The position numbers and the translations under genes were made by a program. From a plasmid, in sequence record NZ_CP044066.1: a DNA stretch of 64,000 nt; one strand, 5' to 3'. The notes under the pieces were generated by a model. It was given only the letters and a program-made list of their open reading frames with translations, ran no database searches and was not told where the DNA came from. Shown here one piece after another: positions 1-61,333 of the stretch; the stretch's first letter is position 1; each line of letters begins with the position of its first letter.

Positions 1-189
1 CCGGCTGTTTCAAATCGCTGAGATCTGGTGCGCGCGATGGGGGTGCGGGCTGATCTGCAGGAGCCTTCGTGGCAAAGCCATTCGGTTGGCGCTCTACTAG
101 TGCTTGCGCACGCGCGAATCGATCCGCTGGGGGCGCTACCGATAGTGCTCGGTTTGCTTGCTGTCGCATAAGGTCAAGCTTCTTCGTCA

Positions 190-903
190 TCAGATCACCT
201 CCGCATTCTGCGTAACCGCTTTTGTCTTTCCTGCTTTCTTGCCTACAGGCAGGCCGAGTTTTTCCAGGACGACATCCGCGAGGGCTTCGACTTCTTTCAC
301 AGCTGCGCCCGCCCCCGTAACGCCATGAACGCTTAGGCCGAACATCTGCGATTCACCATATGCGTTGCGCTGTTGCAGACCGGTATCCAGGAGCGGAATT
401 TCCTGGTCATCCTGCAAGATCTCTGTGCATGCCTTGAATACGTTGCCACGACGGGACATGGATGGAATGCAGTAGGTCTGGAGCGAAGGATTCTCCTGCT
501 TAGCACGCCTTGCCAGCTCTTTTGCCTCTCTGCTCGCCCAGACATTGTCCAGCAGCGGGATAACTGGGATCAGACCGATGTCGGAGACGTTGAGGGCAGC
601 CCAGGGAATGGACGACTCAATGGCGGGTGGGCAATCGATGAAGATGAAGTCGTAATTCACCGCATGCTTCTCAATCTCCCCGAGCATCTTTTCGCGAAGC
701 GGCGCTAGGCTGATAACGGTGGCCGGGAATGGCTTATCGGCACCGGCCTGACCCGCCCAGATAGTGCTCGTGCCTTGCTTGTCCATATCAACCAGCAGCG
801 TGCGGTGACCGCGGAGCGCAAACGCTGCCGCGAGTTGCATGCACGTCATTGTTTTTCCGCAACCGCCCTTCTGGTTAAACACCGTGATAATGCGTGCGCC
901 CAT
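190..903 (-). CDS. parA: ParA/Soj-family partition ATPase (small, no N-terminal HTH)
   Basis: 237 aa. Deviant Walker A 'KGGCGKTMT' at N-terminus (IITVFNQKGGCGKT...LVDMDKQGTS). RBS GGGAGA before ATG. AT-rich promoter region 904-1000. Partner parB would lie left of the window. Confidence 0.85.
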   Translation of the reverse strand: MGARIITVFNQKGGCGKTMTCMQLAAAFALRGHRTLLVDMDKQGTSTIWAGQAGADKPFPATVISLAPLREKMLGEIEKHAVNYDFIFIDCPPAIESSIPWAALNVSDIGLIPVIPLLDNVWASREAKELARRAKQENPSLQTYCIPSMSRRGNVFKACTEILQDDQEIPLLDTGLQQRNAYGESQMFGLSVHGVTGAGAAVKEVEALADVVLEKLGLPVGKKAGKTKAVTQNAEVI

Positions 904-1113
904 ACTGATCTCCCGAAATTTTATTTAAAATAACATAAAATTATTGATAATGAAACATCCTATTTGCATTGATTGCACATTGTTGACGTAATGCGTTGAC
1001 AGTCGAAGATGTCGCGCCACGGACGCGTCATTCAAACTGCGAATTGCTTGCTTGGATTGCTGGCCTTCCGCATGATGACCCCGAGGGGCGGCAATCACTA
1101 GCCGAGTCCCCAT

Positions 1114-2482
1114 CTTTCACACGTGAAAGTTCCGTTGTTTAGCCCGGGACGACCAGCTGAGGAAGCCTGATGCAAGAACTGGAGATTAGTCGCGAACCGT
1201 GTTGGGAGACTTTGTTGGCGGTTGGATGAAGGATGGCTTTCACGTGTGAAAGCAGCCTAGTATGTGACGCGTGAACTTTTGGCATCAAGGAGGACAGGTT
1301 CCTGCGCTCAGCGCTCCTGTCGAAAGCACATACTTTCACGTGTGAAAGTATGTGCTTATCTCGTCCATTCTAGAGTTCAGTAGTCCGCGATCAGAGATGT
1401 GGTGGGCTGGTGTAGTGCTGATTAGGGCTACGCTACACACACTTTCACATGTGAAAGTGTAGCGCGCTCATCCGAAGTTCCACACAAAAGCCCGTAGTCC
1501 AAGGTGCGCTTCCCGCCTCGTATGCCTTCGCTTGTTTGCTTAATGAATGCGCGTTTCGATACCACGTATGGCGCATACGCATTCTCTAAGATCCCGTACC
1601 ACGACCTTTCACATGTGAAAGTCACCTCGAAATGTGTCACCCTCGGGTTGATATCCTTATCACCTCTTGCCGTTTCGGTGAGAACACGCACTAGAAGCTG
1701 CTGCTCGCGCTTTCATACGTGAAAGCGCGAGCGGGCCGATCCCGTTGACTTTTGGAGCTTGGCATTGCATACGCTGAGCATTCAGAAAATTGCAGAGCGT
1801 CGAAAAATGCGGGACGCTGGTGATTTGCTCTGGAGGGCGTAGGCTGTCGCTCCTTTTCATCGGAAAAATACATTTTTATTAAATTTTTTTCTGCAAAGGT
1901 CCCACGCGTCTTCCGTTCGCATAGACGCGTTCCGGAGGTCTGACGGTATCACCTCTCGGTGGTCGGTTTCGTTCGTGCGCGAGTATCCATCAAAGAGCTA
2001 ACCGCCTCGGCGACGAACGTCCCCCATCAGCGAGCGTGTGGCGACAGAGGAGCCTAGACAAGGATGTGAGGCCCGGTTGCGGCCGCATTGTCTCTGGCAG
2101 GGGTTAGGAAGCAGACGCGCTCAGTGATGCCGCCTGTGGCCGCGCTACTGCGCACCATTGCGTCTAGAAGGGATCGGTCGCCTAGGCAGGGGGGGCGGAA
2201 TCATTGGAGCGCGATTCTTCAACGCAGCACAACACAGCCCCAGAATAGCTCACGGCGAGTCCTGGCCAGGACGAACCATGAAACGGATCTCCAGCCATCT
2301 AAGTGTCTGATAATAAACAAGAATGAACCACGCGACATTTCACAAGGAGTAAAACGCGTGGCAAAAATCAATGTAAATTATCTTCGATTATGGTGGCTCA
2401 CCCGTAACAGAAGCTGCTGCCGTTCGGCTGAGTAGGAATCGGGAGGCTGAGCAACATCGTTTTCTGCTTTCACATGTGAAAG
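1114..2482. repeat. array of 7 palindromes CTTTCAC-NN-GTGAAAG (candidate parS-like centromere / iteron cluster) upstream of parA
   Basis: Copies at 1114-1129, 1237-1252, 1333-1348 (arms extended to 28 bp: cacatac...gtatgtg), 1447-1462 (arms cgctacacac...gtgtagcg), 1606-1621, 1710-1725 (arms gctcgcgc...gcgcgagc) and 2467-2482. The region lacks credible ORFs. Confidence 0.6.
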
Positions 2483-3790
2483 CGTGTGGAAGCTCTGGGC
2501 GATCGTTGATTTCCGCGCAGATCAGCAGGGGCAGGGTGTGCGTCGGGGGCGCGAGAGTATCCATAACCGCGTATAGGGACGAGCGCCGGACGCGCGCCGC
2601 CCCCGACGCGTTTCCCGCCAAGCTCTGAGCCCGGATGCGGATGCTCCAGATCGTAAGTCACCTGGCCGTTAGCCGTTAGATGCAATGTCCTTGATCCAAC
2701 CTCACTGCGCGCACATGGGCGCAAGATTTGGTTCGAGGAGCTTGGGATCCACTAGGAAGGCGAGCACTGGAGGTGCCCGGAGCAATGGTCGTACCCCCAC
2801 CCATCTAGCCGAGGGGCTGAGCGTCGAAGCCTGCGTCGCCAGCGCGCCAGCGGCTTTGCTGGCGCTGGCCCGCCGGGCCCGCGTGCACCGCTGGCCATCA
2901 CGATCGCGTTCACGCAGGCATGCGCTTCTCGAATGGGCGGCGACATGGGGGCTTGGATCATCGAAGACCACTATCTCGGTGCCGAGAGTGTCGTTCATAT
3001 CAGCTCGTTTAGAAAACGATCGACTTGGCGCTGGGCCTTGGCTTCGCCCCCGGGGCTCTCTAATTCCGCAATCCTGCCGCGTTAACGATGGCAGGTGGAG
3101 CGCAGATAGAGTTTCGCAGATCGGCGCGCGGTGGCACTGCAGCTCGCATATGCCGGGGAGGCAGGCGTCTCCGGCATGTCGATCTGGCCACCGCGCAAGA
3201 TGCCTTTGACGCCACCCCGCGCGCTGGCGCACTGTCACTGCGCCAGCGCCGCGCACGAGCTGCCAATGTGCGTAGCCGACGAGCGTAGCGGTGGTCCAAG
3301 TTTTTGTCCGTCCCCCCGCGTTTAGCCTGGATCGGGAAGCCCATGGTCGGCAGAGTAGGCGGCAGCGTCCGAAATCGCAGAAATCAGGACAAGCGGCTGT
3401 CTGTGCGCGACTGATCTGACGAGCGACGTCGCCTAGGTCGCTACACGCGACCGCTCGCCGCACTTGTCGGGGGACGCTTCGGCTCGATCGATAACCACAT
3501 CGCAAACGCGGGCAGGAATACGACACACCGTCGATTCATGCAACATTCGATTGGCGTTGACAGCTGGTCTCCAGCAACTTTTGCGCACCCCGGATGCGTT
3601 GCGGGATCAGCCATTGGATCGGCGCGGTTCCCGTTTCGTCAGGGAAGCGGCACGACGGCCAGCCGCGCCGCACGGCGATCGCCTGGCCATAGTCACTCCC
3701 GGCCAAATTCAGGCGCTTCCCTCGTGCGCCACTCCGCGTGGACTTGTCGTTCCGAGCAGGGCGAGTTCGAGCAGTTGCCTCGAATGTGCG

Positions 3791-3814
3791 AAAAAAAGCT
3801 CCGCATCGCGGAGC
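3791..3814 (-). terminator. rho-independent terminator of cspA
   Basis: Hairpin gctccgc-atc-gcggagc followed by a T7 run on the minus strand, immediately after the cspA stop. Confidence 0.6.
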
Positions 3815-3839
3815 TCCTTCGAGAGATTACAGGAGCCGT

Positions 3840-4043
3840 TTAGATCGGCTCGATTTTCGTTGCTGCAGGACCCTTTTGGCCCACCCCGGCAATATAGCGA
3901 ACCTTTTGTCCCTCTTGGAGGGACTTAAACCCACTGCCTTGAACCTCGGAAAAGTGCGCAAAAAGATCGTTTCCGCCATTATCGGGCGTGATAAACCCAA
4001 AGCCCTTCGAATCGTTGAACCACTTTACGGTACCGGTTTCCAT
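3840..4043 (-). CDS. cspA: cold-shock protein CspA family
   Basis: 67 aa. [20 protein letters not shown]...FAHFS contains RNP1/RNP2 cold-shock motifs. Confidence 0.92.
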
Positions 4044-4191
4044 GTTGAATTCCTTAAAAAGTTCTCAGCTGGCATAGCATTGCCAGCGAGGCACGACGTT
4101 CAAGGGAGCAGCAACAAGGAAAGTGACGCTATGCGTCAGGTACATCGAGGCTATGACTTGAGATCCTGCTCGATCTCTTATACAGGTCGAT

Positions 4192-5104
4192 GTGACGCGG
4201 GGCAAGCGAAGAAGGAAAATTCCCGAAGATTCGTGCGCGAGCAATCTGTGGCCCATTTTCTCTGAATTGCGAGGGAGATATCCCAAGCACGCAAGTACGG
4301 GCGGATTGCGTCCGAAGACCTGTAAGCTCATCCGAAATCGCACGCTGGCACAGGTTGTGGCAGTCAAACTAACGAAGCAGTGGTCCCCGGAGCAGATTGA
4401 AGGTTGGCTCAAGCATGTCTACGCGGTCAACAAGGACTACCAGGTGTCACACGAGACCATCTATCGTAGCCTCTACGTGCAGGCCCGCGCCGCGCCCTGA
4501 AGAAGGAGTTGCTTCAACATCTGAGGCGGTGCCGGATCATGCGCCACTCGCGCAACTATTCGGCGAAGGCCGACGAGCGCGGAAGAATCCGTGATGCCGT
4601 TTCAATAAGCGAGCGACCGCGAACGCTGAAGATCGCGCGATACCTGGGCATTGGGAAGACGACTTGCTCTTCGACAGTGCCAATAGCCAGATCGTCACCT
4701 TGGTCGAGCGTCAGACGCGGTTCGTGATGCTCCTGAAGGTCTCCGGCAAAGACACGGAGACAGTCGTCAACGCCTTGATCCGACATGCCGGAGAACTGCC
4801 CCAGGAGCTTTACAAATCGTTGGCGTGGGATCGCGGCAAGGGGTTGGCGGACCACCAGCGTTTTACGGTCTCGACCGACATCAAGGTTTACTTCTGTGAC
4901 CCACGGAATCCCTGGCAACGCGGCTCCAACGAGAACACCAATGGCCTCCTGAGGCAGTACCTTCCCAAAGGAATTGATCTCTCTGTCTATTCACAGGCAA
5001 AGCTCAATGGCATAGCACGCCGCGTCAACGAACGTCCGCGTAAAACACTAAACTTCGATACACCCGCTGAACGATTCCATCAAACCGTTGCATCGACCGG
5101 TTGA
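4192..5104 (+). pseudogene. IS30-family transposase remnant (5'-truncated, at least 2 frameshifts)
   Basis: Three successive frames carry IS30 transposase segments: ...KQWSPEQIEGWL.. (4192-4500), ..RGRIRDAVSISERP.. (4509-4727) and ..SQIVTLVERQTRFVMLLKV..DTETV..NGLLRQYLPKG..ERPRKTLNFDTPAE (4664-5104). The HTH part is missing and overlaps the cspA upstream region. Confidence 0.7.
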
Positions 5105-5325
5105 ATCCACAAGTGTGCACTGCCACAAATGGCGAACAGTCGATCGCAGTTGTTGATCGCAGACTTGGCTGCGTCTGCATTGGACAGCTACTAACTCGTG
5201 CGAACCCTGCGCAGTCGGCCGGAATGGACACGTGTTCACGCCATTTGCGATGAGCGGATCTAATCCCCAGCCTAATATTGATAAAGCCATTTGGCTCGGC
5301 TTCGATTCGCATCTTTCGACGCTGA

Positions 5326-5589
5326 TCACAGTTGAGGTGTTGTTGGCCGCCGTGGCGCAGCTTCACCTGCATTAATCAAACGCTTACGACGCTGCAATCG
5401 CAAAGCGGATACTGTGACAATCAACGCTGGTAGGAACGATTCGGCTGTATTGACCTGTACACCCTGAGCGCGCGCGTCTCGGATGGTCGCAATTTGCTGG
5501 CGTATGAGAAACCGGCCTTCATCGATGTAGGCATCCAGCCGCTTCTCTTGCATCAGCTCAATGAAGGCTTCCGTCAGATCAAGGCTCAT
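5326..5589 (-). CDS. hypothetical small protein (second gene of overlapping pair)
   Basis: 87-aa ORF coupled to the upstream ORF. Possible toxin-antitoxin-like or regulator pair, unidentified. Confidence 0.3.
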   Translation of the reverse strand: MSLDLTEAFIELMQEKRLDAYIDEGRFLIRQQIATIRDARAQGVQVNTAESFLPALIVTVSALRLQRRKRLINAGEAAPRRPTTPQL

Positions 5590-5897
5590 GTCATGGTCTT
5601 CTGGTCGGTCGCGAAATTAGACTTTGCCACCGGGCGGCGCTCGTCTATCCACAGCTTGGCCCACGCGAGCCCTTGAGCCAGCGCCCGCTCGCGGGTTCTG
5701 AAGACGCCGAGTGATCCCGAAATCGCAAGCGTGTCGCTTTCCTGCTCAACTGCTCCAGAGGACTCAAATACGTCGTCGGAGATCGCGCGGGCATATGCCC
5801 TCGCTTGGTGACCGAAGTATCTTTGCGTCGTTGTGATGGGTCCCACAGAACTGCTCCCCTCTAAGACGGCAGTGGCAAATTGCGGCCGCCACTGCAT
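5586..5897 (-). CDS. hypothetical protein (first gene of a 4-nt-overlapping pair)
   Basis: 103-aa ORF. Its stop overlaps the start of the next ORF (ATGA). No recognisable domain. Confidence 0.3.
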   Translation of the reverse strand: MQWRPQFATAVLEGSSSVGPITTTQRYFGHQARAYARAISDDVFESSGAVEQESDTLAISGSLGVFRTRERALAQGLAWAKLWIDERRPVAKSNFATDQKTMT

Positions 5898-6813
5898 GGT
5901 AGAGAGCGGATGGGCTGGAGGCTACCAAGGCCGGCAGTCGGCAATGGAAGGATTCCGTACAAGCGAGGTGTGGCATCAGGTGCGGCGGCGTGCCGCCGCA
6001 CCTTCATATTCTCAACGCGGGAGAGCAATTAGTCACTCGGTCACTCGCGCTTTACACGTTTGCAGTTCTAGAGTGCGAGCCGTCTCGATGCAACCCGTGT
6101 CCGGCGAGATAGCGTTCAGTTTGATTAGTCGCTCGACTCTCCACCAGGCGACAACTTCTGCTGCATATGCTTGGTCACGGTGGAAGAGCTCGCAATGTAC
6201 CGGGCGGCCAGTTAGCATAGACCGCACTATACGCAAAGTGGAACCGTCTCTCAGATGCGACAGCAGTCGAGTTTGTTGAACGGATTTCGCCATGTTGTTA
6301 GTAGGAACAATTAATGATGCGACCTTGAAAGTGATATGTCGCAAAAATTTGCCGGCTACTACATTACGAGAATAAAGGAGAGTCCTTCATTCTAGCTCAA
6401 TCTTTGGGATCGAATATATTAATATCTATGGTATATCCCCCAGCGTCTGCGCAGCCCCGATTCAGGGTTCAACGTTCCCAATTACATCCAGCTATTCTCA
6501 CGGGTTGGCCGCGCGTGCGAAATAAGAGGAAGTGTGGGTAAGTCGTCGCTCTACGCCGATCCGCTATTGACCTCAGTCGGATATCACGAGCGAATTACTG
6601 TCGCCTGCGTGTCTAGCGCGTCGAACCTATTGCACTGTTTAAGCCAAAACTCGTGACGGGCGCTCCGGTTAAATGTGCTTCCCTATGATAAATTTGCCAA
6701 TTTTGATGCCCTTAAATGAGCGTTCCCTTGACCTCTTCCTTGAAAGATGGGCAAAGGCTGGTAAGCTAGGGAGCGTCGACATCTGTAGGTGCAACAACAA
6801 GGAGAAGAAAGCA

Positions 6814-7128
6814 ATGGCTACTTACAAACAACTGCTGGCTCAGAAGCAAGCGCTGGAAGCTCAAATCGCCGAGGTACGCGCGACGGAAGTGAATGGTGTT
6901 ATCGACCAGATTCGCGCGCTTATGGAGCAATATGGATTGTCTCTCGAGGATATTCAGGGTAAGCGTCGCCGGGGACGGCCGGCAGGCAGGGGAGTCGCGA
7001 AAGAAGTCAAGGAGCCGCTACCCCCTAAGTTCCGGGATCCAAAGTCCGGTAAGACGTGGTCGGGTCGGGGGCGGACGCCAGCCTGGCTCGGCAAGAACCC
7101 GAATCGTTTTCTAATCGCACAGGAGTAA
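6814..7128 (+). CDS. H-NS-family nucleoid-associated protein (Bv3F/MvaT-like)
   Basis: MATYKQLLAQKQALEAQI.. coiled-coil N-terminus. C-terminal ..KFRDPKSGKTWSGRGRTPAWL is the H-NS DNA-binding motif. RBS AAGGAGAAG lies 6 nt before the ATG at 6814. Long AT-rich upstream region 6280-6800. Confidence 0.8.
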   Translation: MATYKQLLAQKQALEAQIAEVRATEVNGVIDQIRALMEQYGLSLEDIQGKRRRGRPAGRGVAKEVKEPLPPKFRDPKSGKTWSGRGRTPAWLGKNPNRFLIAQE

Positions 7129-7377
7129 CCCGAGCTCCGGAGCCCGCTTGTCTGTTTCTCGTGGGGCGACGACATCAAACGCGTCCGAGGTCAAGGCCGT
7201 GGCATGCGCGCAGCGAGGGCCTTGGTCAGTAGATAGAGCGATGACGGATCGCGCACGGAGCTCTTACAAGGTTGTGCCGCGAGCCTCTTTAGCGCAAGCG
7301 GATTACCCATTGCCGTAGCAGCATCGCCCGCGACAGCATCGTCGAATCAGTCGCGAGCCGAATGTCTCTAGTCCCAC

Positions 7378-9396
7378 TCAACGTTCGAGGAATAGCTTCA
7401 GTTTATCGGCGCGACTCGGGTGCCTTAGCTTGCGCATCGCTTTAGTTTCAATTTGTCGGATTCGCTCACGCGTCACGTCGAATTGCTTACCGACCTCTTC
7501 CAAGGTGTGCTCGGTGTGAGTTTCGAGTCCGAACCGCATCCGCAGTACCTTGGCTTCGCGGGGCGACAACTCATCCAGAGCCGCATCGATCTGCGCACGC
7601 AGGCCTGCCGAAACTGCTGCCTCAGCCGGTGAACTCGTCGCATCATCTTCAATCATGTCACCGAGCGTGGTGTCTCCTTCCTCGCCCACCGGAGTCTCGA
7701 GCGAGATAGGTTGCTTGGCGATCTTGAGAAGGCCGCGTACCTTCTCCTCGGACAACTCCATGCGCTCGGCGAGGAGCGCTGGATCGGCTTCTTGCCCAGT
7801 TCGCTGCAATATCTCGCGCGAAATCCGGTTCAGCTTGTTGATCGTCTCGATCATATGTACCGGGACGCGGATAGTCCTGCCCTGATCGGCAATTGCCCGT
7901 GTCACGGATTGCCTGACCCACCACGTCGCATACGTGGAAAACTTCCAGCCGCGACGGTATTCGAATTTATCCACCGCCTTCATCAGGCCGATATTGCCTT
8001 CCTGGATAAGATCCAAGAATTGCATGCCGCGGTTCATGTACTTCTTTGCAATGGAGACGACCAGCCGCAGATTGGCTTCGATCATTTCGCCCTTAGCTTT
8101 ACGCATCTTCCGCTCGGCAGCACCCATCATGTTGTTGATATGCTTGAGCTGCTGGAGTGGTAGTGCGACCTTCTCCTCTATGTCGATAAGTTTCTGCTGA
8201 CTCGCCTGAATGGCAGGCAGCTGCCGCTCGAGTGCCGGGCCAAACTTGCCGGAAGTTGCGGCCGCACGGTGGACCCAGCCGAGATCGGTCTCGTGGCCCG
8301 CGAAAGACTGAATAAATGTCTCGCGGGGCATGCCGCAGCGCGCAACGGCGATCTCGAGGATGGAGCGTTCGATCGCACGCACTTGTGTCACCTGGTCGTG
8401 CACGCTCACACACAGGCGATCGATCATCTTCGGGGTAAACCGGATTGGCGCAAGCTCTCGCTGGATTTCAGCGCGCATGCCATCCATGGCTGCGGAATGC
8501 GTAGGGCCAGTGACGGGCAGCTCGGTCATCCGTTCGAATAGGGCTCGCACGCGTGCAAAAATCGCCAGACTGTCGGTGGTCAGTTGTTCCAGCTGGGCCG
8601 CATTCACCTTTTCTGAATCGCCGGAACCATCTTCGTCATCGTCCGACACATTGTCCTCCACTTCGGGGGTATCAGAATCGAAATCAGCGGGCTCGACAGC
8701 CACTTCTTCGGATGGAAGGGGCGAGTCGCTCGCATCTACAAATACACCGCCCACTGTGTCGCTGATGCCGTCAACCAGTTCGTCAATGCGTGAGTCGCCG
8801 GCGATGACACGCTCCGCTTCGGAAAGGATCATGGAAACCACCGCGGGACAGGCAGCGATGGCCTGGATCATATCCTGCAGGCCACTCTCGATGCGTTTGG
8901 CGACATCAATTTCGCCAGCGCGAGTCAGCAATTCGCTGGAGCCCATTTCGCGCATATACATCCGGACCGGATCTGTGGTCCGGCCAAACTCGGAATCGAC
9001 GGTCGACAAGGCCGCCTCTGCTTCTTCGTCCGCCTGATCATCGGACGTTGCAGTGGGTGCGACATCACGCAGCAGTAGCGCTTCGGCGTCAGGCGCCTGC
9101 TCATAAATGGTCACGCCCATTTCGTTGAACGTGCTGACGATGGTTCCCATTGCCGCAGGTGTCACGATCTCGGACAGATGATCGTTAATATCCGCGTGTG
9201 TGAGATAACCTCGCTCGCGCGCAAGCGCGATGAGCGCACGCATCTGGCCTTTGCGCTCCGCATCCTCGCCGACTATGGATACATCATCTGATAGCTTTGC
9301 TACCGCCTGCGTCTTGGCGGTTGATCGCCGGCGGTTGGGCTTTTCCCCTCCGCGCGACGAGGTGGAGCTTTCAAAGTCAGGATCCGAACGGGTCAA
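7378..9396 (-). CDS. rpoD: RNA polymerase sigma-70 family factor, RpoD-like
   Basis: 672 aa. Acidic region 1.1. Region 2 [44 protein letters not shown]. Regions 3 and 4.2 (..[35 protein letters not shown]) all present. Confidence 0.9.
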
Positions 9397-11303: not shown

Positions 11304-12302
11304 ATGACCCAAACACTCGTCGTCATAGCGGCATCCCGGGGAGGCCTTTCGGTACTCAAGACCCTCGTCTCCGACCTCGATCGAGATTTCCAGGCGACGA
11401 TTCTGGTAGTCATGCACGTGGGCAGGCATCCAAGCATCCTGCCGGAGTTGCTGGCCGCTTGGGGGGCGGTCGCGGTGAGCCATGCTATTGATGGCGAGAC
11501 GATGAAAATCGGTCGGATATATGTAGCCCCACCTGATCGGCATATGGTTGTGCACGGCGACAAGATCCAGCTGCTCGATACGGCCGCCGAGAATTTCTGT
11601 CGTCCGGCTGCAGATCCGCTATTCCGCTCTGCGGCAGTTCACTACGGGGATCGAGTCATTGGCGTGGTCCTTACGGGCGACCTTGATGATGGCGCGGCCG
11701 GGCTTGCTGCGATAGCGGCTCGGGGTGGCTATCGAATCGTGCAACAGCCTGAGGATTGCGAAGCCCCATCGATGCCTCGCAGTGCACTCGCTGCGGCAGG
11801 GGCGGATGTTGTGACAACGCAGGAGAAACTTCCCAGTGTTCTGCGGGCTGCTATCAGTGAGCTATTTCAGCGTGGAGGGGCCATGATAAGTAGTCGGCCA
11901 GACTTGGACCGCGAGGCACAGATTGCGGAAAACGGACTAGCGTACCCTGAGGATCTTGATGAGATCGCAGAACGCTCAGCACTCACATGTCCAAGCTGCA
12001 ACGGGGTGTTATGGCGGCTTCGGGATGAGCGGCCGTTACGCTATCGCTGCCACACAGGTCACGCATACTCGGTGCTGTCACTGGAGGAAGCGACCGCACG
12101 TGCGACGACGGACGCGATATGGCGCGCTATTCGAGCCGTTCGCGAGCATATGATTCTTGCGCAAGAGCGTTGCTTCTCGGCGCAGAGGTTGGGTAACTAC
12201 GGCGACGCGGCACTGGAGCGTGCGCGCGTTGAAGAGAATGAAAAGCTAGTCGCTTTATTGCGGGAAGTGGCTGGAGCGCATGCGTTGGTCGAGCACTCAT
12301 AG
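11304..12302 (+). CDS. CheB-type protein-glutamate methylesterase domain protein (no receiver domain) with Cys/His-rich C-terminal extension
   Basis: LVVIAASRGGLSVLKTLVSDL..ILVVMHV..IYVAPPDRHMVV..CRPAADPLFRSAA..VIGVVLTGDLDDGAAGLAAI matches the CheB catalytic domain. C-terminal CPSCNG...RYRCHTGHAY. Confidence 0.7.
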   Translation: MTQTLVVIAASRGGLSVLKTLVSDLDRDFQATILVVMHVGRHPSILPELLAAWGAVAVSHAIDGETMKIGRIYVAPPDRHMVVHGDKIQLLDTAAENFCRPAADPLFRSAAVHYGDRVIGVVLTGDLDDGAAGLAAIAARGGYRIVQQPEDCEAPSMPRSALAAAGADVVTTQEKLPSVLRAAISELFQRGGAMISSRPDLDREAQIAENGLAYPEDLDEIAERSALTCPSCNGVLWRLRDERPLRYRCHTGHAYSVLSLEEATARATTDAIWRAIRAVREHMILAQERCFSAQRLGNYGDAALERARVEENEKLVALLREVAGAHALVEHS

Positions 12303-20887: not shown

Positions 20888-22600
20888 CTACTTGCGCCGG
20901 AAGACTTGCTCGAGCTGATCGCTACGCTGAATGTCATCCTCGTGAAGGTAGCGCGACGTGGTCGTGATGGATGAATGCCGCAGGTTGTCGCGAACCGATG
21001 TCAGTGAGGCACCCCCCATGAGCGCATGGGTGGCATGGGTATGCCGGAGCCAATGCGGTGTGGCGCGCCGCAGCTTGTCGGCGAGCGGCGGATGGTCGCG
21101 CGCGACATTGTCGGCGGCGAATTTCAGGAATCGCTGCAACACGGCACGCAGTCGCGGCGTCGTGATTGGAGTTCCATCCTCCAGATTGGCGAGAATCGGC
21201 GCACGTCGGTCCCATAGCGCAGGCGTTGTTGGCAGTCCGCGCATAAGCAGGTATTGCTCCAGCGCTTGGTTCGCCATCGTGGGGAGCGCCACCTTGCCGC
21301 GGCGCTCGCCCTTGCCGATCAGGTGCAGCCAGCGCTCGCCGCGCGGTCCCAACTCGATGCCGCCAAGCGTCACACCAACCAGCTCGGCCGCACGCAGTCC
21401 CGTCGCATACCCGAAATCCAGCAAGAACCGCAGCCTCATAGCCGCGTCCGACTTCCAACCCTGCGACCATTCCAGGCCATCCGCGAGCGCGCGTACGAGC
21501 GCCCATTCCCCTTTGGTGAAGACACGCGAGGCGTCAAGAGCCGCGGCGCGCTGCGCGCCGCGCACCTTCAGGCCGGCGAACGGATTGGCCAGCACGTAGC
21601 ACTGCGCAATCAGCCAGCGAAACAATGCACCGATGACGCCGAGCGCGTAGGCGATGGATCGCGGCGCCAGCGCACCGGTGAACGGGCGCCATTCCGAAGA
21701 GGGGCGAGGGCGCGCCGGGCCGACCCACCGCGAAGTCGGCGCCCGCAGGAATGCCCGATAGGCCGTTGCATCCTCGGAGGTGAGCGAAGAGAGCGGCTTG
21801 CCGCGCTCGAGCATCGCCCATAAGAGTAGCCTCTCCGCCTCTTTGCGATACGCCCGCGCGGTAGCCGGCGCCTCGTGCAGCGCAAGCCAGGCATTGACGG
21901 CGTCGTAATCGTTATTGGCGGAAAGCGAACACATCAGCCGTGGTGCACGGAAGGTTCCGTGCGAGCCGTCGATCTCCTTCGGCAGCACGATATCGTCCCA
22001 AGGCACAATGCGCGCCGCCGCGGATGTCCTTGCCTGCGATGCCATGACGAGGGCGCGGGCTCGCTCAGTCAGTCGCGGATGCGCGGCAAAGAAGGCCTCG
22101 ATGACCCGCGCGCTTCGCTCCCCCAACCCGTCAATCGCCACCCACCACCGCCTACGCCGCGGAATCCGAATGGTGAGATCCGCGAGGGTATTAAGCCCAT
22201 GCGCCCGCAGCGCGGACGCTGCCCGGGCAGGCAACCACGTTTCGACGGCATCAGTGATCTGCGGCATCGCCGCGGGCAAATGCCGCAACGCCTCAATGGC
22301 GCGCGGCACCTCCGCGGAGCGACTGACGCGGCAATCAGCCGGGCAACCGAAGAGGGCGGCAAGCTCCTCCCGCTGCCCCGCGCGCGCGATATCCACCAGG
22401 TGCCGACGCAGCTCGCCGAGTACACCCCGCGCGGAGCGTCCCGGCGTCAGCGCGTCCGGCCAGAACCGCTCGATAGCCATGCGTGAAGGGGCGCCCTCAT
22501 ACCAGGCGCGCAACGCCGCCAATGCATCGGCCGAAGGAAACGCGGCAGCTGTCGCGACGGGGGATGGTCCGGGGAGGGCGGTAAGGGGGCGGCGAGGCAT
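20888..22600 (-). CDS. int: large tyrosine recombinase/integrase (genomic-island type; start at M60 of the 629-aa ORF, alternative start 22777)
   Basis: C-terminal catalytic domain ..WLRHTHATHALMGGASLTSVRDNLRHSSITTTSRYLH.. (R..H..R..Y). Long N-terminal region. The shorter start avoids overlap with the tRNA-3' fragment at 22735. Confidence 0.85.
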   Translation of the reverse strand: MPRRPLTALPGPSPVATAAAFPSADALAALRAWYEGAPSRMAIERFWPDALTPGRSARGVLGELRRHLVDIARAGQREELAALFGCPADCRVSRSAEVPRAIEALRHLPAAMPQITDAVETWLPARAASALRAHGLNTLADLTIRIPRRRRWWVAIDGLGERSARVIEAFFAAHPRLTERARALVMASQARTSAAARIVPWDDIVLPKEIDGSHGTFRAPRLMCSLSANNDYDAVNAWLALHEAPATARAYRKEAERLLLWAMLERGKPLSSLTSEDATAYRAFLRAPTSRWVGPARPRPSSEWRPFTGALAPRSIAYALGVIGALFRWLIAQCYVLANPFAGLKVRGAQRAAALDASRVFTKGEWALVRALADGLEWSQGWKSDAAMRLRFLLDFGYATGLRAAELVGVTLGGIELGPRGERWLHLIGKGERRGKVALPTMANQALEQYLLMRGLPTTPALWDRRAPILANLEDGTPITTPRLRAVLQRFLKFAADNVARDHPPLADKLRRATPHWLRHTHATHALMGGASLTSVRDNLRHSSITTTSRYLHEDDIQRSDQLEQVFRRK

Positions 22601-22734
22601 GGGTGTGGCGTAAGTTTGCAACCCTGAGTTTGCCACACAAAATGATTGGTATCGATAATGTTTGTTATCGGTATAGCGACGCGTTCCAAAAGAAACTCGT
22701 CTCGCGCGCGGCGGAAGTTGAATCGGGTTCAAGC

Positions 22735-22758
22735 GTTCGAATCCCCCTCTCTCCGCCA
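22735..22758 (+). other. tRNA 3'-end fragment (T-loop + acceptor 3' strand + CCA): putative att-site remnant
   Basis: gTTCGAATcccccTCTCTCCgCCA. The canonical T-loop and CCA end are present but no 5' half is found, so this is not an intact tRNA. Confidence 0.4.
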
Positions 22759-22782
22759 AGAATAAGTACGAATTCATCCGAA

Positions 22783-22806
22783 GCCGTCCAACTGGGCGGC
22801 TTTTTT
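22783..22806 (+). terminator. hairpin + T6 terminator-like element after the tRNA fragment
   Basis: gccgtcc-aact-gggcggc followed by tttttt. Confidence 0.35.
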
Positions 22807-23094
22807 GTTTTCTATCCCTTATGCAGCAACGGCTTGCTGGCGATATGCTGTCCTAAGTAGTGCGTAGTCGTCCGTCCCCAGCCGGTGAAATCCTGGGTAC
22901 ATAGGGGGGAAACTGGCCTCATCAACGACACGCGGGGTACCTCAAGCGAGCGCGAACGCGAGCTTTGTACTTCGAGGACGAGGGCGATGCCACGACTCAC
23001 TGAGATCTAGCTCAAGAACGAACAGCCTGGAGAGAAGGCCCGCAAGATTTACGACGAGCGCGGGCTCTTCCTGCTCGTCAACCCGGACGGTTCG

Positions 23095-24201
23095 ATGTAC
23101 TGGCGCGTGCGCTACACGCTCGACGGGAAGGAGAAGCTGACGCAGGTCGGTGTCTATCGGAAGAAGGGCACAGAGCGGGTCACGATGCGCCTTTCCAAGG
23201 CGCGCGAGCGACGCGACGAGCTACGCGATCTGCTGAGCCGGGGTTTGGACCCCTCGGCCCGGGCGGCGCGAGGCGTACGTTGGCCGTTGTGGTTGAAGAG
23301 TGGATTGAGGCGTACCGCCTCGGCTGGTCCGTGCAGCACGCACACCAGAACTGGCAGTCGTTACGGGACCAACCACGTCCTCCCAATCATCGGAGCGAAG
23401 CCGATGCGAACGATTGGGACCGCCGGCATCCTCACCGTCCTCCAGAAAATGCTTGCAGAAGGGAAGGCAGAGACTGCGCGGCGAGTTCGTCAACGCTTGG
23501 CCGGCGTCTTCCAGTTCGCAGTCCTGCGCGAGTACATCGATCGTGACCCGGTGCCGCTCGTCGCCAAGGAGTTCACCGAACTCCGCGCTCAGGCTCTCAA
23601 GATCAACCCTACCGAGTCGTTCGCTTGTATAAGCCGCGAGGAACTGCCGGCGCTGTTGCGAGTCATGAGTGCGTATCCAGGCATCGTGGTCCGCATCGCG
23701 CTCAGGCTGACCATGCTTACGCTCGCCAGGACGAAGGAAATCCGCGGCGCAACGTGGGCGGAGTTTCACGATGTCGATGGCGATGCGCCGATCTGGCGTA
23801 TCCCGGCTGCACGGATGAAGGCAAATCGCGCGCACGACGTGCCGCTAAGCCGCCAGGCCGTCGAAGTTTTGAAGGAGTTGCGAGGATACACCGGCGATAG
23901 CGAGTACCTGTTCCCACATGAGCGGAAGGGTGACAGGTCGATGAGCGAGAGCGCGATGCTCTACGCGCTCTGGTCGATGGGGTATCGCGGCCGTATGACT
24001 GGGCACGGCTTCCGTGCACTCGGATCGACCATCCTGAATGAGGCAGGCTATTGCACCCGTGGTGATTGAGCGCGCGTTGGCGCACGACGTCAGCGATAAG
24101 GTCGAGGCCGCCTACAACCGCGCCGAGTATCTGCGGTAGCGGCGCGAAATGCTGCAGTGGCGCGCGGACGTGGGAGAGCGCCTCAGCAAGCTGACATCCT
24201 G
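23095..24201 (+). pseudogene. P4-family phage integrase, frameshifted (at least 3 frame changes)
   Basis: MYWRVRYTLDGKEKLTQVGVY.. then a shift to frame 23280 (..VVVEEWIEAYRLGWSVQHAHQNW..). It then returns (..NHVLPIIGAKPMRTI.. ..TLARTKEIRGATWAEF.. HDVPLS.. GHGFRA) and shifts again after 24065 (..IERALAHDVSDKVEAAYNRAEYL.. ..MLQWRADVGE..). Confidence 0.75.
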
Positions 24202-32356: not shown

Positions 32357-33361
32357 TTATCTATATTGTTTTCGAGCTATATCTGAGCTGAAGGCGCTGG
32401 CCGCTATACCGGAGATGACTGGGTCAGCCCGAATCAGAATCAGAATACCGTCGGCCTCAGTTCCAAGATTATCGAAAAGCGCATATTTGTTGGCATATTC
32501 GATAAATGGCTCGCCCCGCTGAGTCATGCAGTTGTAAACAAGAAAAACGAGCTCTATCCAAGAAAGTTGAGCTCTAATGATTGCGATGTACTGCCACTTT
32601 TCTTCTCGACTAATTATCTTCGGGTCAGATTCGTCGACCCATTTGATTAGTCGGAACAGGGTACGAAACATTCCATCGAGCTGATATCGATGTCTGTCAA
32701 ATACCGTCTCGTACCCATCCCGTGCCATATTTATTGCTGTTTCCCGTTGATCTTTTGACCAGTTGGAGAAAAATAGTGGGTCTTGCGGGGTGGAAAGACT
32801 ACTCCTATGTCGGCGTTGAAAAGTCGGCAACTTTTTCCCTGACTTTGAATCCTTCAGGATAACTCGCGCTGCGGTAAAGGAGCCGACGTGCATGCGTTTG
32901 AGTGCATGTCGGCCGATATATATTTTTTCCGGGGCCTCGGCATTTTCATTGCTGATGGTTAGCTGAATACTATCCAAGAGCTTATGGTATGAATTCAGCC
33001 AAGAGAAAAAACTGTTTTCGAATCCCTGTTTTGCTAAGGCTTTGTTCGAGATTCGCAGCTCGCGTAGTGATGCCTGCAACTCGCGCCGTTGAAGCTTAAC
33101 TGTGACAAGCACTAAGTAAACGGTTGCTAAGCCAACTACCGGGTTGATTGTGCCACCGATAAAATCACCAAACTGCCCCCATGCTTCACCTTTCTCAGAA
33201 AATGGGAGACTAATAAAATTTAAGGCGTACGCGGCTACGACACTAATGGCGATGTATATGACGATTCGAAAGACTTCCGCCGCGGATTTGAGATCGTTCG
33301 ATCCATCCTCATCGTCCATCTCCGACAAAGTTGGAGCTCCGAATTCTCGGTCATTTTTCAT
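32357..33361 (-). CDS. putative abortive-infection membrane protein (putAbiC/PF16872-like), AT-rich foreign gene
   Basis: The gene is clearly lower in GC than its neighbours. N-terminal two-TM region ..FGDFIGGTINPVVGLATVYLVLVTVKLQRRE.. resembles Abi membrane anchors. Confidence 0.45.
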   Translation of the reverse strand: MKNDREFGAPTLSEMDDEDGSNDLKSAAEVFRIVIYIAISVVAAYALNFISLPFSEKGEAWGQFGDFIGGTINPVVGLATVYLVLVTVKLQRRELQASLRELRISNKALAKQGFENSFFSWLNSYHKLLDSIQLTISNENAEAPEKIYIGRHALKRMHVGSFTAARVILKDSKSGKKLPTFQRRHRSSLSTPQDPLFFSNWSKDQRETAINMARDGYETVFDRHRYQLDGMFRTLFRLIKWVDESDPKIISREEKWQYIAIIRAQLSWIELVFLVYNCMTQRGEPFIEYANKYALFDNLGTEADGILILIRADPVISGIAASAFSSDIARKQYR

Positions 33362-49272: not shown

Positions 49273-49743
49273 TTGCCGGAGCCTGTCATGCGAACCATCG
49301 CCTTTCACCCATCAGGCGCTCAGGCGCCTTATGAACGCTACCTCGAAGACTTGAGTGCTTTTTTGAGCACTAAGGTGCGCGGCGGCGCCGATCTGGCGAC
49401 GTTGGCGAGTGACAGGCTGCCGGCAGAGACACTCGAGCGTCTGCTCGAGACGGGTCTCTCGTGGGACGAAGTCGCCTTCATCATTCCCCGGCGGACGCTG
49501 AGTCATCGTCGGGAGAAGGGCCAACCGCTGACGGTGGAGGAATCAGACAAAGCCATTCGGCTGGCTCGGATTCTTGCCCTGGCGGTGAACACGTTCGGTG
49601 ATGTCGAGCGCGGATTGAACTGGTTGCGTCAAAAGCAGCAGCGGCTCGGCGGGATGGCGCCGTTGTCTCTGGCTGGGACCGAGCAAGGGGCGCATCTCGT
49701 CGAGGAGCAACTCGTGCAAATCGACGAAGGGTACTTTGCCTGA
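49273..49743 (+). CDS. Xre/ParS(MbcA)-type antitoxin (DUF2384) of RES-Xre toxin-antitoxin
   Basis: 156 aa. Stop/start overlap with the downstream RES toxin (..TGATGA..). Confidence 0.65.
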   Translation: MPEPVMRTIAFHPSGAQAPYERYLEDLSAFLSTKVRGGADLATLASDRLPAETLERLLETGLSWDEVAFIIPRRTLSHRREKGQPLTVEESDKAIRLARILALAVNTFGDVERGLNWLRQKQQRLGGMAPLSLAGTEQGAHLVEEQLVQIDEGYFA

Positions 49744-50210
49744 TGATCCTTTGGCGAATCAGCAACTACGCGGATCTCAAAGGCGTCGGTGGACTGCGCG
49801 CAGGAGGACGATGGCATTTCCCCGGTCAGCCGGTTGTGTATCTTGCAGAACACCCTGCGCTTGCGCTCCTTGAGGTGTTAGTTCACCACGAGCTCTCGAG
49901 AATCGAGGATCTGCCGAGAAACTACCAGCTCTTGAAAGTCGAGGTTGATGACGCCATCGCGGTCGCTAGCATTGCGGACCTGCCGGCAGACTGGAAGCAG
50001 AACGCCGGCTGGTCGAAGAATGCCGGCACGGAATGGCTGTCCGTCCGATCCAGTCTGCTCCTGAAGGTGCCGAGCGTCCTAGTGCCTTACGCGTCGAATT
50101 ACGTTTTTAACCCATCGCATCCGGATGCGGAGAAGGCTCGCATCCTCGAGGCCGAGCGCGTCGAGCATGATCCGCGCATCCTTTCACTGCTCTCTGAGCC
50201 GCGGGCATGA
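49743..50210 (+). CDS. RES-domain toxin (ParT/MbcT-like NAD+-targeting)
   Basis: ..GGRWHFPGQPVVYLAEHPALALLEVLVH.. with R-E-S signature residues. 155 aa. Confidence 0.85.
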   Translation: MILWRISNYADLKGVGGLRAGGRWHFPGQPVVYLAEHPALALLEVLVHHELSRIEDLPRNYQLLKVEVDDAIAVASIADLPADWKQNAGWSKNAGTEWLSVRSSLLLKVPSVLVPYASNYVFNPSHPDAEKARILEAERVEHDPRILSLLSEPRA

Positions 50211-50387
50211 TCCCCCCGGCCGTTTTGCCGGCCGTCAGAAAGACCAACAGCTTGAGAGCACGAACGACCGTGCGCAGTGCCTACTGCTAGGAGCGTGGCT
50301 CCTGCCACCTTGTTGCGAAGACACCAGCTCGTAGGCGCCACACGCTCATCAAATCGCAACTAACTGCCAATCCCATCCTGCTCACCA

Positions 50388-50403
50388 CTTTCACATGTGA
50401 AAA
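50388..50403. repeat. isolated 8th copy of the TTTCAC-AT-GTGAAA palindrome
   Basis: ctttcacatgtgaaaa, 30 bp upstream of the -35 of the mazEF-like promoter. Confidence 0.6.
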
Positions 50404-50434
50404 TGGATCGCATACCCGATAACAGCCTATATCG

Positions 50435-50463
50435 TTGCTAATAACGGATGCGCAGGTTATACT
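50435..50463 (+). promoter_or_regulatory. sigma-70 promoter TTGCTA-N17-TATACT of the antitoxin/toxin operon
   Basis: ttgcta ataacggatgcgcaggt tatact, about 40 bp upstream of the antitoxin ATG. Confidence 0.55.
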
Positions 50464-50470
50464 GTTCGCG

Positions 50471-50484
50471 TGTTACTAGTAACG
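50471..50484. promoter_or_regulatory. perfect palindrome TGTTACTAGTAACA overlapping +1: putative antitoxin operator
   Basis: Lies between the -10 and the RBS (GGGGGAGAAG). Confidence 0.5.
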
Positions 50485-50501
50485 ACAAACGGGGGAGAAG
50501 C

Positions 50502-50714
50502 ATGGCGAAGAGCACTGCGCTACGTGCCAGGGAGTTTCGGGCCGCAAAGGCAGCGTTGGGGCTGCGCCAAGTGTTGTTATGGGTGCCTGACACGCGTGAT
50601 CCCATCTACATCGCCGAGTGCAAGCGACAGTCAGCACTTATCGCCGCGGAGCCTCGCGAGTGGGAGCTGGCAGAAGAGCTTAGCCAAATGAGTGATACGT
50701 CGGGGTGGGAATGA
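50502..50714 (+). CDS. DUF3018/MazE-like antitoxin
   Basis: MAKSTALRAREFRAAKAALGLRQVLLWVPDTRDPIYIAECKRQSALIAAEP.. Strong RBS. 4-nt overlap with the toxin gene. Confidence 0.6.
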   Translation: MAKSTALRAREFRAAKAALGLRQVLLWVPDTRDPIYIAECKRQSALIAAEPREWELAEELSQMSDTSGWE

Positions 50715-51037
50715 AGCGAGGTGACGTCGTTGTAGTGGCAATGAACACCGAGTTCGGTAAGCCACGTCCAGCCCTTGTCATTCAGTCCAACACTTACCTA
50801 GACGAGCATCCGACGATCAACGTTTTGCCCATTACCAGCGAGCTTCGCAATACGCCGGCGTTTCGCATTCGTGTCGAGCCGGACGAGCAGAATGGGCTTC
50901 GCGAGATATCGGAGATCATGGTCGACAAGATCCAGTCGCCACTGAGAACGAAGATTGGCAAGGTCATTGGCCGACTGGACAGCGACCGCATGGCGGAAGT
51001 TGACCGTGCACTAACCGTCTGGCTTGGCATCGTCTGA
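50705..51037 (+). CDS. MazF/PemK-family endoribonuclease toxin
   Basis: ..KRGDVVVVAMNTEFGKPRPALVIQSN.. ..INVLPITSELRNTP..RIRVEPDEQNGLREISEIMVDKIQS.. Confidence 0.85.
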   Translation: MGMKRGDVVVVAMNTEFGKPRPALVIQSNTYLDEHPTINVLPITSELRNTPAFRIRVEPDEQNGLREISEIMVDKIQSPLRTKIGKVIGRLDSDRMAEVDRALTVWLGIV

Positions 51038-59835: not shown

Positions 59836-61333
59836 CAGGGTCTGCCTCAGGAGGGAGCAACGGCCCCGCATCGCCCAAGAACCTGGGAACGCCGCTCAGA
59901 ACCCCTTGGAATTGCTCCAATGGAGCGCCGAAGACGAGCCCCGTGTTGCCCAACCTGTATTCGCGAATTGATTCCTCGTGCGGACCGGTGCGCTTCTTGA
60001 TGACCGAGACGGCGCGGCGCACGCGTCCGTGCGCTTCGAAATAGCGGAGCAGGATAACGGTATCGGCAAGGTACGTCACGTCGACGGGTGTCTTCATGTC
60101 TCCCACCAAGCCATGCTGGGCCACGGTCAGGAATGTATTCGCGCCTTGCCGGTTCAGGTATTGGAGCAGTTCGTGAATATGAAGCGTCAACGCACTCTCT
60201 TCCGGCATGGCGGACTCATAGCCGTTGATGCTGTCGATCACCACTGTCTTCGCCTGCAGGTCGTCCACGCTGGTGCGTACCCGATGCGCGAACTCTCCGG
60301 GGGACAGTTCGGCCGCATCGACCTGCTCAATATGCAGCTTCCCCGAGGCGCGCATGGCTTCGAGGTCTATGCCCATGGCACGGACTCGATCGAAGAGCAG
60401 GCCGAGTTCTTCGTCGAATATGAACAGCGCAGCTTTTTCACCACGCTCAACTGCTGCCGCTACGAACTGGAGTGCGTAGAGACTTTTACCGGTTCCTGAC
60501 GGGCCTAGAATAAGTACGCTGGAACCTTGCTCGACTCCGCCACCAAGAAGGTCATCCAGACCCTGAATCCCACTTGTGCGTTGTTTGCGACTAAACACGG
60601 AGCGATGTTCCAGTGCCACCAGCCGCGGAAAGACCGCCACACCACCGGTCTTGATCGTGAAATCGTGATAGCCACCTCGGAATGACTGGCCCCGGTACTT
60701 AACAATCTTCACCCTGCGACGCTCTGCGCCGTAGTTCGGCGAAAGCTCCTCCAGCTTCACGACGCCATGAGCAATGCTATGTACCGTCTTGTCCTCCACG
60801 TCCGAGGTACGATCATCGAGTATCAGTACGGTAGCGTTTTGGCGGGCGAAGTAATGCTTGAATGCGAGAACCTGGCGCCGATATCGCAGGGAACTTTGGG
60901 CTAGCAAGCGAATTTCCGAAAGGCTGTCGATAACGACGCGCCCGGGCTTAACGCGAGCGAACTCGGCGAGGATAGACGTGACCGTCTCCCCGAGTTCGAG
61001 GTCGGAGGAATATAGTAAGCTCTGCTGCTGGTTCGCCTCTAGAAGGGCTTCAGGCGGAGTTACCTCAAATATTGAGATCAGTGGGTCCAACTCCCATCCA
61101 TGGGAATACATGCCGTCCTTCAACTCCTCAGCAGTCTCAGACAGAGTGATATACAACCCACGTTGACCCTTCTCCGCGCCGGCCATCAGAAACTTGATGG
61201 CAATCGTTGTTTTGCCAGTGCCAGGGCTGCCTTCCAACAGGTAGAGATTTCCTTCCTTGAGCCCACCGTTGAGAATATCGTCAAGCCCCGAAACGCCCGT
61301 GCTTGCGAATGTCCGTGCCGCCGCGTCGCTCAT
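59828..61333 (-). CDS. kaiC: KaiC-family double RecA-like ATPase
   Basis: Two Walker A motifs (LLEGSPGTGKTT and LILGPSGTGKS). ..GVSGLDDILNGGL.. and ..GIQGLDDLLGGGV.. duplicated domains. 501 aa. Confidence 0.9.
   Translation of the reverse strand: MSDAAARTFASTGVSGLDDILNGGLKEGNLYLLEGSPGTGKTTIAIKFLMAGAEKGQRGLYITLSETAEELKDGMYSHGWELDPLISIFEVTPPEALLEANQQQSLLYSSDLELGETVTSILAEFARVKPGRVVIDSLSEIRLLAQSSLRYRRQVLAFKHYFARQNATVLILDDRTSDVEDKTVHSIAHGVVKLEELSPNYGAERRRVKIVKYRGQSFRGGYHDFTIKTGGVAVFPRLVALEHRSVFSRKQRTSGIQGLDDLLGGGVEQGSSVLILGPSGTGKSLYALQFVAAAVERGEKAALFIFDEELGLLFDRVRAMGIDLEAMRASGKLHIEQVDAAELSPGEFAHRVRTSVDDLQAKTVVIDSINGYESAMPEESALTLHIHELLQYLNRQGANTFLTVAQHGLVGDMKTPVDVTYLADTVILLRYFEAHGRVRRAVSVIKKRTGPHEESIREYRLGNTGLVFGAPLEQFQGVLSGVPRFLGDAGPLLPPEADPDE

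Follow-up and report, generated by a model that had tools for sequence, protein, structure and literature searches.

The parS centromere of IncA/C plasmids is a 22-bp inverted repeat, AAAC-TTTCACATGTGAAA-GTTT, in which TTTCACATGTGAAA has been termed the "fully conserved symmetrical core"; IncC backbones hold 12-14 copies, one of them at the parA promoter, and IncC ParB binds parS in electrophoretic mobility shift assays only when the flanks are present, with a 4-bp central insertion abolishing binding (PMC10954446, NAR 2024). In pAR060302 we confirmed three such IncC sites, one lying just upstream of parA. The Bsr centromeres of Burkholderiales secondary replicons, found on Burkholderia cenocepacia c2, c3 and pBC and on plasmids of Ralstonia pickettii 12D/12J and B. 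vietnamiensis G4, cluster at parAB and take the form of 16-bp palindromes whose 5' ends are T-rich and whose centre is CG; examples are GTTTCAACGTTGAAAC (parS-12D, Bsr3), GTTGTCACGTGACAAC (c3) and CTTGGCTCGAGCCAAG (pBC), and central changes abolished binding in six of the six systems tested by surface plasmon resonance (SPR) (PMC5450999). Here we have analysed a stretch of 64,000 nucleotides from plasmid record NZ_CP044066.1, the whole of which we call the window, in which seven short palindromes at positions 1,114 to 2,482 lie upstream of a parA gene. We conclude that this array is very probably the parS centromere of a type I ParABS system on a large, low-copy conjugative plasmid, its palindromes being predicted ParB sites. 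The ParB-type reading is strongly supported at the sequence level by the position of the array, by its conservation in 12 related plasmids and by its confinement to the DNA upstream of parA.

Within the array, the 14-mer TTTCACNNGTGAAA is matched exactly at 1115, 1238, 1334, 1443, 1607 and 2468, and outside it once more at 50389, whereas its expectation in dinucleotide-preserving shuffles of the window is 0.00; counted over the whole window, there are 7 or 8 matches versus 0.0-0.1 expected by chance. Allowing mismatches adds a single array copy, TTTCATACGTGAAA at 1711-1724, which departs from the 14-mer TTTCACNNGTGAAA at one base. The original prediction, made from the letters of this DNA without database searches, had counted seven TTTCAC-N2-GTGAAA palindromes; six are indeed exact, while the copy at 1711-1724 is not, yet it does fit the form CTTTCA-N4-TGAAAG, which is exact in all seven array copies. 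The eighth copy, at 50388, is one mismatch away from that form (base 16 is A, not G).

As 16-bp features without strand, the sites begin with the parA-proximal site 1 (CTTTCACACGTGAAAG, 1114-1129), 211 bp from the parA ATG, followed by site 2 (CTTTCACGTGTGAAAG, 1237-1252), site 3 (core 1333-1348), site 4 (core 1442-1457), site 5 (CTTTCACATGTGAAAG, 1606-1621), site 6 (CTTTCATACGTGAAAG, core 1710-1725) and site 7 (again CTTTCACATGTGAAAG, 2467-2482). At 1716, within site 6, a 99%-identical variant of the locus from another sample (L003) carries C where the window has T. Successive spacings are 123, 96, 109, 164, 104 and 757 bp, such that the regular interval of about 100 bp first attributed to the array holds for the six copies contained within 612 bp but not for site 7, an outlier 757 bp past site 6. 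Overall there are seven sites in 1.4 kb as against one in the other ~72 kb of the replicon seen.

The gene that the array precedes, parA (190-903, minus strand), was assigned by open reading frame (ORF) and Pfam match, and encodes a 237-aa deviant Walker-A ParA without an N-terminal helix-turn-helix (HTH) domain; the product matches Pfam AAA_31/CbiA/ParA, and its best NCBIfam match, NF041546 (ParA_partition), falls under that model's cut-off. The sites thus lie 0.2-1.6 kb upstream of a minus-strand parA, in agreement with the placement first proposed. The 5' end of parB occupies positions 1-190 (minus strand), its ATG overlapping the parA stop codon (ATGA), with the remainder of the gene to the left of the window; judged by this gene arrangement, parA and parB are co-transcribed. 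A Logan contig retrieved through a look-up of the ParA protein (L001), 100% identical to positions 1-7849 of the window and continuing leftward, supplies the full parB (L001 7660-8697). Its 345-aa product carries ParB_N and HTH_ParB domains and the motifs GHYRLRA (GxxRxxA) and ENAERE, its nearest solved structures are Noc and Spo0J, and a domain search of it returned no KorB domain. Altogether, the locus displays the hallmarks of a type I ParABS system: a Walker-type ParA adjoining a ParB with ParB_N and HTH domains, clustered inverted-repeat sites, and co-occurrence of these elements in 13 of 13 loci.

The same contig reveals the replication and transfer functions. In order, it encodes ParA, ParB and, after a gap of 1 kb, a 437-aa Rep_3 initiator, a UvrD-type helicase, a DUF4400 protein, a TraD/TraG coupling protein and a TraI_2 (MOBH) relaxase. 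Between parB and rep lie about 12 direct repeats of GGTGAAC-N4-TTGGGG (L001 8880-9665), which by their sequence are the predicted iteron origin of the plasmid; a G-rich tract with GGGG motifs lies ahead of these iterons, at L001 8912-9018. By its gene content the plasmid is therefore classed as a Rep_3 iteron replicon with a MOBH relaxase, whose relatives are Cupriavidus megaplasmids. No array-type palindrome was detected when L001 was scanned through parB, the iteron region, rep and the transfer genes.

Conservation among related plasmids supports the same reading. A tblastn search with ParB returned three complete Cupriavidus megaplasmids at 65-73% identity, then Ralstonia solanacearum megaplasmids at ~40% and many Burkholderia replicons, and scanning a single genome per species brought in nine further Cupriavidus loci with ParB 65-91% identical, for a comparison set of 13 loci (the window plasmid and 12 related Cupriavidus plasmids). 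Each of the 13 carries, 0.1-2 kb upstream of parA, an array of 4-16 copies of CTTTCA-N4-TGAAAG. The surrounding non-coding DNA of the relatives has no detectable similarity to the window and, because this flanking DNA is unalignable, the sites are the only conserved element of the regions upstream of parA. In two relatives (L008 and L009) rep lies on the other side, and the sites still accompany parA. The complete 334-kb C. pauculus plasmid NZ_CP033971 has four exact sites, all of them at 295609-296226, within 620 bp, before parA at 296414; the rest of that replicon contains no exact site, 0.005 being expected from composition. Checked on this complete relative, the motif is accordingly not spread at similar density, one of the ways in which the original prediction could have failed.

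Pooling 88 exact sites yields the consensus R-CTTTCA-N-R-Y-N-TGAAAG-Y, with G at position 8 in 83% of sites and C in none of the 88, C at position 9 in 77%, T as the next base after the site in 74%, and positions 7 and 10 free. The central dinucleotide is AT, GT or AC in the window plasmid and mostly GC in the relatives. The clade formed by the window plasmid and a 91% relative (L011) is fixed for C at position 7 and for G at position 10, which accounts for the TTTCAC-RY-GTGAAA appearance of the copies in the window. Sites in the relatives lie 39-356 bp apart, and helical phasing of the spacings, tested across the family, is unsupported (Rayleigh p = 0.09-0.98), so that an interval of ~100 bp is not special.

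The DNA around the array supplies further context. Between site 1 and parA, the putative parA leader and promoter region (904-1113, minus strand) is AT-rich and contains GTCAAC and TGCAA direct repeats; it contains no ParB-type site, and a consensus scan called no minus-strand promoter in it. The array had been placed in a gene-free stretch of 1.4 kb; gene-free it is, although its extent is longer, the gene-poor DNA reaching from ~904 to ~3839 (~2.9 kb) with ORFs that have no Pfam match. Those at 2088-2435, 2685-3209 and 2702-3526 were rejected as genes because they match no family and because indels disrupt them in L003, which differs from the window by five indels, at 1323, 2238, 2288, 3081 (+11 bp) and 3312. 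An AT-rich tract at ~1860-1900 also lies inside the gene-poor stretch, and a 14-mer, GCG(C/A)GAGTATCCAT, occurs twice, at 1977 and at 2551. Searches aimed at close kin returned little: PLSDB held no near-identical plasmid, a distant nucleotide search with 1730-3840 found trivial fragments only, and a nucleotide search with the site-8/mazEF region found no match. Rfam gave no match across the whole window and therefore lends no support to a structured RNA.

Following established ParABS biology, one HTH of a ParB dimer would sit on each CTTTCA/TGAAAG hexamer, and the four central base pairs would be read weakly or not at all. The sites would then act as loading points for CTP-bound ParB clamps, which by sliding would build a single partition complex over ~1.5 kb, and ParA-ATP bound to nucleoid DNA would position and separate the plasmid copies. 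The partition complex would probably dampen parAB transcription too, and autoregulation of parAB through these sites is plausible. Three points weigh against the centromere interpretation or some part of it. First, the presumed parA promoter of the window plasmid is overlapped by no site, the nearest being the one 211 bp from the ATG, and a consensus scan of the window plasmid called no promoter overlapping any site; autoregulation through the sites is for this reason unproven. Second, the central CG that is essential in the SPR-tested Bsr sites is absent here, and the binding mode may therefore differ from that of the characterised relatives. Third, about 74 kb of the replicon was inspected, the Logan contig running on for another 50 kb to the left, and further distant sites are possible beyond the inspected part. 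The original prediction of a non-canonical ParB-type centromere is strongly supported as to the centromere, whereas "non-canonical" applies only in relation to the universal chromosomal parS.

The eighth copy merits separate consideration. Site 8 (CTTTCACATGTGAAAA, 50388-50403) lies between the Xre/RES and MazE-like/PemK toxin-antitoxin pairs, two modules arranged back to back at 49273-51037 (plus strand; Xre(ParS)/RES(ParT) and MazE-like/PemK). Its position next to a mazEF-like promoter, noted at the outset, is real: the exact 14-mer at 50389 is ~35 bp upstream of the promoter-like TTGCTA-17-TATACT ahead of the MazE-like/PemK pair. In two other samples encoding the same PemK protein (L033 270-320 and L034 150-200), site 8 falls within a 36-bp palindrome, ATGCTC[A/C]CCA-C-TTTCAC-[AT/GT]-GTGAAA-A-TGG[T/G]GAGCAT, in which A>C on one arm is paired with T>G on the other between the samples. 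In the window (50370-50410) a clustered 4-nt change, TGAG>ATCG, breaks the right arm. Of the 14 columns that vary in the 300-bp intergenic alignment, about 8 lie within or next to the palindrome, a pattern typical of a palindrome-driven mutational hot spot. Across samples the hexamers of site 8 are invariant and only the central dinucleotide varies; because this variation mirrors the central tolerance of the array, site 8 is probably an outlying ParB site.

This hot spot bears directly on the long arms that surround some of the array copies. Site 3 lies within a 34-bp palindrome (AAGCACATACTTTCAC-GT-GTGAAAGTATGTGCTT, 1324-1357) with 16-nt arms, site 6 within a GC-rich 30-bp palindrome (1703-1732) with 13-nt arms, and site 4 within a perfect palindrome of 22 bp (1439-1460) beyond which pairing of the outer arms is broken by a 4-nt (CA)n bulge. 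Three copies had been reported to be centred in longer perfect palindromes of 28-32 bp; the palindromes are there, but their sizes are 34, 30 and 22 bp, and the outer pairing at site 4 is interrupted. Folded as single-stranded DNA, 1324-1357, 1703-1732 and 1439-1460 reach -15.1, -18.6 and -11.0 kcal/mol, respectively, versus about -3.5 for plain sites. Against a null in which left and right flanks were paired across different plasmids, extension by at least 4 bp beyond the 16-mer was observed at 10 of the 88 sites (1.0 expected) and by at least 5 bp at 7 (0.3 expected). Extended sites recur in several plasmids, the longest extension (18 bp) being in L019; given this enrichment and recurrence, the observation of long arms is sound and general. 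The long arms were also considered as transcription terminators and rejected, there being no T-runs after the stems.

The best-surviving alternative to a plain ParB array is that these arms were selected for cruciform or hairpin extrusion, which would aid ParB loading or insulate the centromere. The enrichment and recurrence just described speak for it, as do hairpin energies of -15 to -19 kcal/mol and the compensatory A>C/T>G pair in the site-8 palindrome. Nevertheless, long arms occur on only ~11% of sites, and which site is extended differs even between the window plasmid and its 91%-identical relative. Generic 6-N4-6 inverted repeats in the same replicons are heavy-tailed too, with 3.1% reaching at least 4 bp; overall, ParB sites exceed them fourfold (p = 0.004), but once the first R/Y flank pair is matched the excess is no longer significant (16% versus 9%, p = 0.22). 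Furthermore, the pattern at the site-8 palindrome fits a mutational hot spot, in which "compensatory" arm changes arise automatically because template switching or arm-to-arm conversion generates them, and proteins of the ParB family bind duplex DNA. We accordingly regard selection for extrusion as unlikely, and the original suggestion that the arms betray it is not favoured, given the site-8 hot spot and the heavy tail of generic repeats.

Most likely the arms arise as a by-product when palindromes drive template switching or arm-to-arm conversion; they are probably not required for function and possibly mark recently created sites. A more specific version of this by-product account, which we offer tentatively and think rather doubtful, holds that the arms record the birth of sites: a hairpin-templated (template-switch) inverted duplication would copy the CTTTCA half-site together with its unique flank and so yield a complete ParB site in the form of a long, perfect palindrome, the outer arms of which would decay later. 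If true, site birth by this route would explain why arms differ from copy to copy and occur at a frequency of ~11%, why the 4-bp centre is unconstrained in the manner of a loop, and why arrays turn over between plasmids with 91%-identical ParB. In a stronger variant, the arms may in addition be selected such that some sites extrude as cruciforms.

The possibility that the sites serve mainly as operators, for a KorB-like ParB or another repressor, with partition not their primary role, appears improbable. It draws on an invariant 32-nt block, TTTGCTTTCATGCTTGAAAGCGCCTAATACGA, which contains the parA-proximal site of three relatives (L008 7167-7200, L015 4173-4206 and L017 4167-4200) ~70 bp upstream of parA and which, by sequence and position, is a likely operator/promoter. 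It draws as well on the location of site 8 ~35 bp upstream of a toxin-antitoxin promoter and on the gene regulation exerted by the ParB/KorB proteins of IncA/C and RK2. Yet the ParB encoded here has no KorB domain, a consensus scan in L008 called no promoter at the conserved block, and the complete relative NZ_CP033971 has no exact sites at other promoters. The number of copies, 7-16 over 0.6-1.4 kb, is also far above what an operator needs, and partition and regulation can in any case coexist.

It is very improbable that the palindromes are iterons of a replication initiator and the stretch part of an origin, as had been suggested for an unseen initiator. The array does lie within 3 kb of the replication module, in a region that includes the AT-rich tract at ~1860-1900. 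However, the real iterons have been located: the Rep_3 gene lies just left of the window with its own ~12 direct repeats, of different sequence, between parB and rep, where iterons classically lie, and thus the palindromes are not iterons. They are, moreover, inverted repeats with irregular spacings of 96-757 bp rather than Rep_3-type direct repeats of ~17-22 bp, and in L008 and L009 they follow parA, not rep. That a host chromosomal ParB binds the sites, allowing the plasmid to hitch-hike on chromosome segregation, is equally improbable: the TTTCAC/GTGAAA hexamers are common to the universal parS TGTTTCACGTGAAACA, but no universal site (TGTTNCACGTGAAACA) was matched in the window at up to 3 mismatches, the half-sites here are 2 bp wider apart, B. 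cenocepacia ParBc1 does not bind TCTTTCACGTGAAAGA (probe S11), and the plasmid encodes a ParAB of its own.

Beyond the partition locus, the window includes a complete Wadjet (JetABCD) anti-plasmid system, carried here on a plasmid (33893-40819, plus strand; DUF3375, DUF4194, a 1114-aa SMC-like protein and JetD), and a gene for a full-length, 672-aa RpoD-type sigma-70 with regions 1.1 to 4 (7378-9396, minus strand), with a CspA-type cold-shock gene at 3840-4043 and an H-NS-like gene at 6673-7128 close by. An IS30-like transposase at 4192-5104 (plus strand) is split into HTH (4192-4500) and rve (4664-5104) ORFs and is apparently frameshifted or degraded. A KaiC-like double-domain ATPase adjoins a PAS hybrid histidine kinase/response regulator at 57766-61333 (minus strand). 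Also present are a CheB-like methylesterase (11304-12302), an AbiC-like gene (32357-33361) and two integrase genes (20888-24069).

For a hitherto uncharacterised family of large conjugative MOBH plasmids of Cupriavidus, the array supplies a centromere annotation, with the consensus R-CTTTCA-N-RY-N-TGAAAG-Y. The ParB clade concerned seems to accept any sequence at positions that all characterised Bsr and chromosomal sites require, and this central tolerance is useful for considering how plasmids come to differ in ParB-parS specificity and incompatibility. Sites that recurrently extend into long palindromes, for their part, offer a small natural data set for the study of palindrome-driven mutation where proteins bind. 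How plasmid partition is currently understood is left unchanged.

How, then, does the locus compare with known centromeres? With the universal parS TGTTTCACGTGAAACA it shares the TTTCAC/GTGAAA hexamers, a 16-bp palindrome and a ParB whose N-domain and HTH are of the Spo0J/Noc type; its half-sites, however, are 2 bp wider apart, and C replaces G before TTTCAC. The two extra central bases were correctly described from the outset, and the same arrangement is known in IncA/C and in parS-12D. The R. solanacearum megaplasmid encodes a ParB that is 40% identical over its full length, with a very similar HTH. In the Po82 megaplasmid (L020), CTTTCAGCGCTGAAAG, which has the same outer hexamers and 4-bp gap, occurs at 2053, 2898 and 4954, flanking and inside parB; a literature search for CTTTCAGCGCTGAAAG and related sites found nothing. 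Those sites nonetheless differ in their fixed GCGC centre, with its central CG, in the 2-3 copies seen, one of them inside parB, and in belonging to a 2-Mb chromid.

The TTTCACATGTGAAA core of IncA/C parS is exact in four of the eight sites here (1443, 1607, 2468 and 50389), the remaining sites differing in two central bases only or, at 1711, in one further base; the C and G directly flanking the core are also common to both, and both are MOBH conjugative plasmids. In contrast, the AAAC/GTTT flanks required by IncC ParB are absent here, where flanks vary among copies, and the centre varies whereas that of IncC, like the rest of its core, does not. On IncC plasmids the copies are spread around the backbone, those here being arrayed, and IncC ParB is a 393-aa KorB-domain protein, that of pAR060302 being 32% identical to the present one over 157 aa. 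That the core is common to both despite such distant ParB proteins raises the question of cross-recognition or centromere mimicry, as demonstrated for SGI1.

The Bsr group is the nearer comparison, with several features in common: a Burkholderiales plasmid host range, a small ParA with an HTH-bearing ParB of ~320-350 aa, a 16-bp palindrome with a T-rich 5' arm, and TTTCA/TGAAA pentamers 4 bp apart and in the same register in parS-12D (GTTTCAACGTTGAAAC). The window ParB is 32% identical to pBC ParB, a value comparable to the 26-31% reported between Bsr families; the tblastn search with it gave 210 Burkholderia and 150 Ralstonia matches. The sites here differ in having C and G at positions 1 and 16, in lacking the 6-bp core with central CG (position 8 is C in 0 of 88 sites), and in varying at positions 7-10 among the copies of one array. 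At the sequence level this is a well-supported ParB centromere array on a Cupriavidus-type MOBH/Rep_3 megaplasmid and, by its sites, a putative member of a Bsr-like group of plasmid centromeres, with a core in common with IncA/C parS. Its particulars are a degenerate centre and recurrent palindrome extension; the array is genuine but, as one more example of an element whose kind is known, for the most part ordinary.

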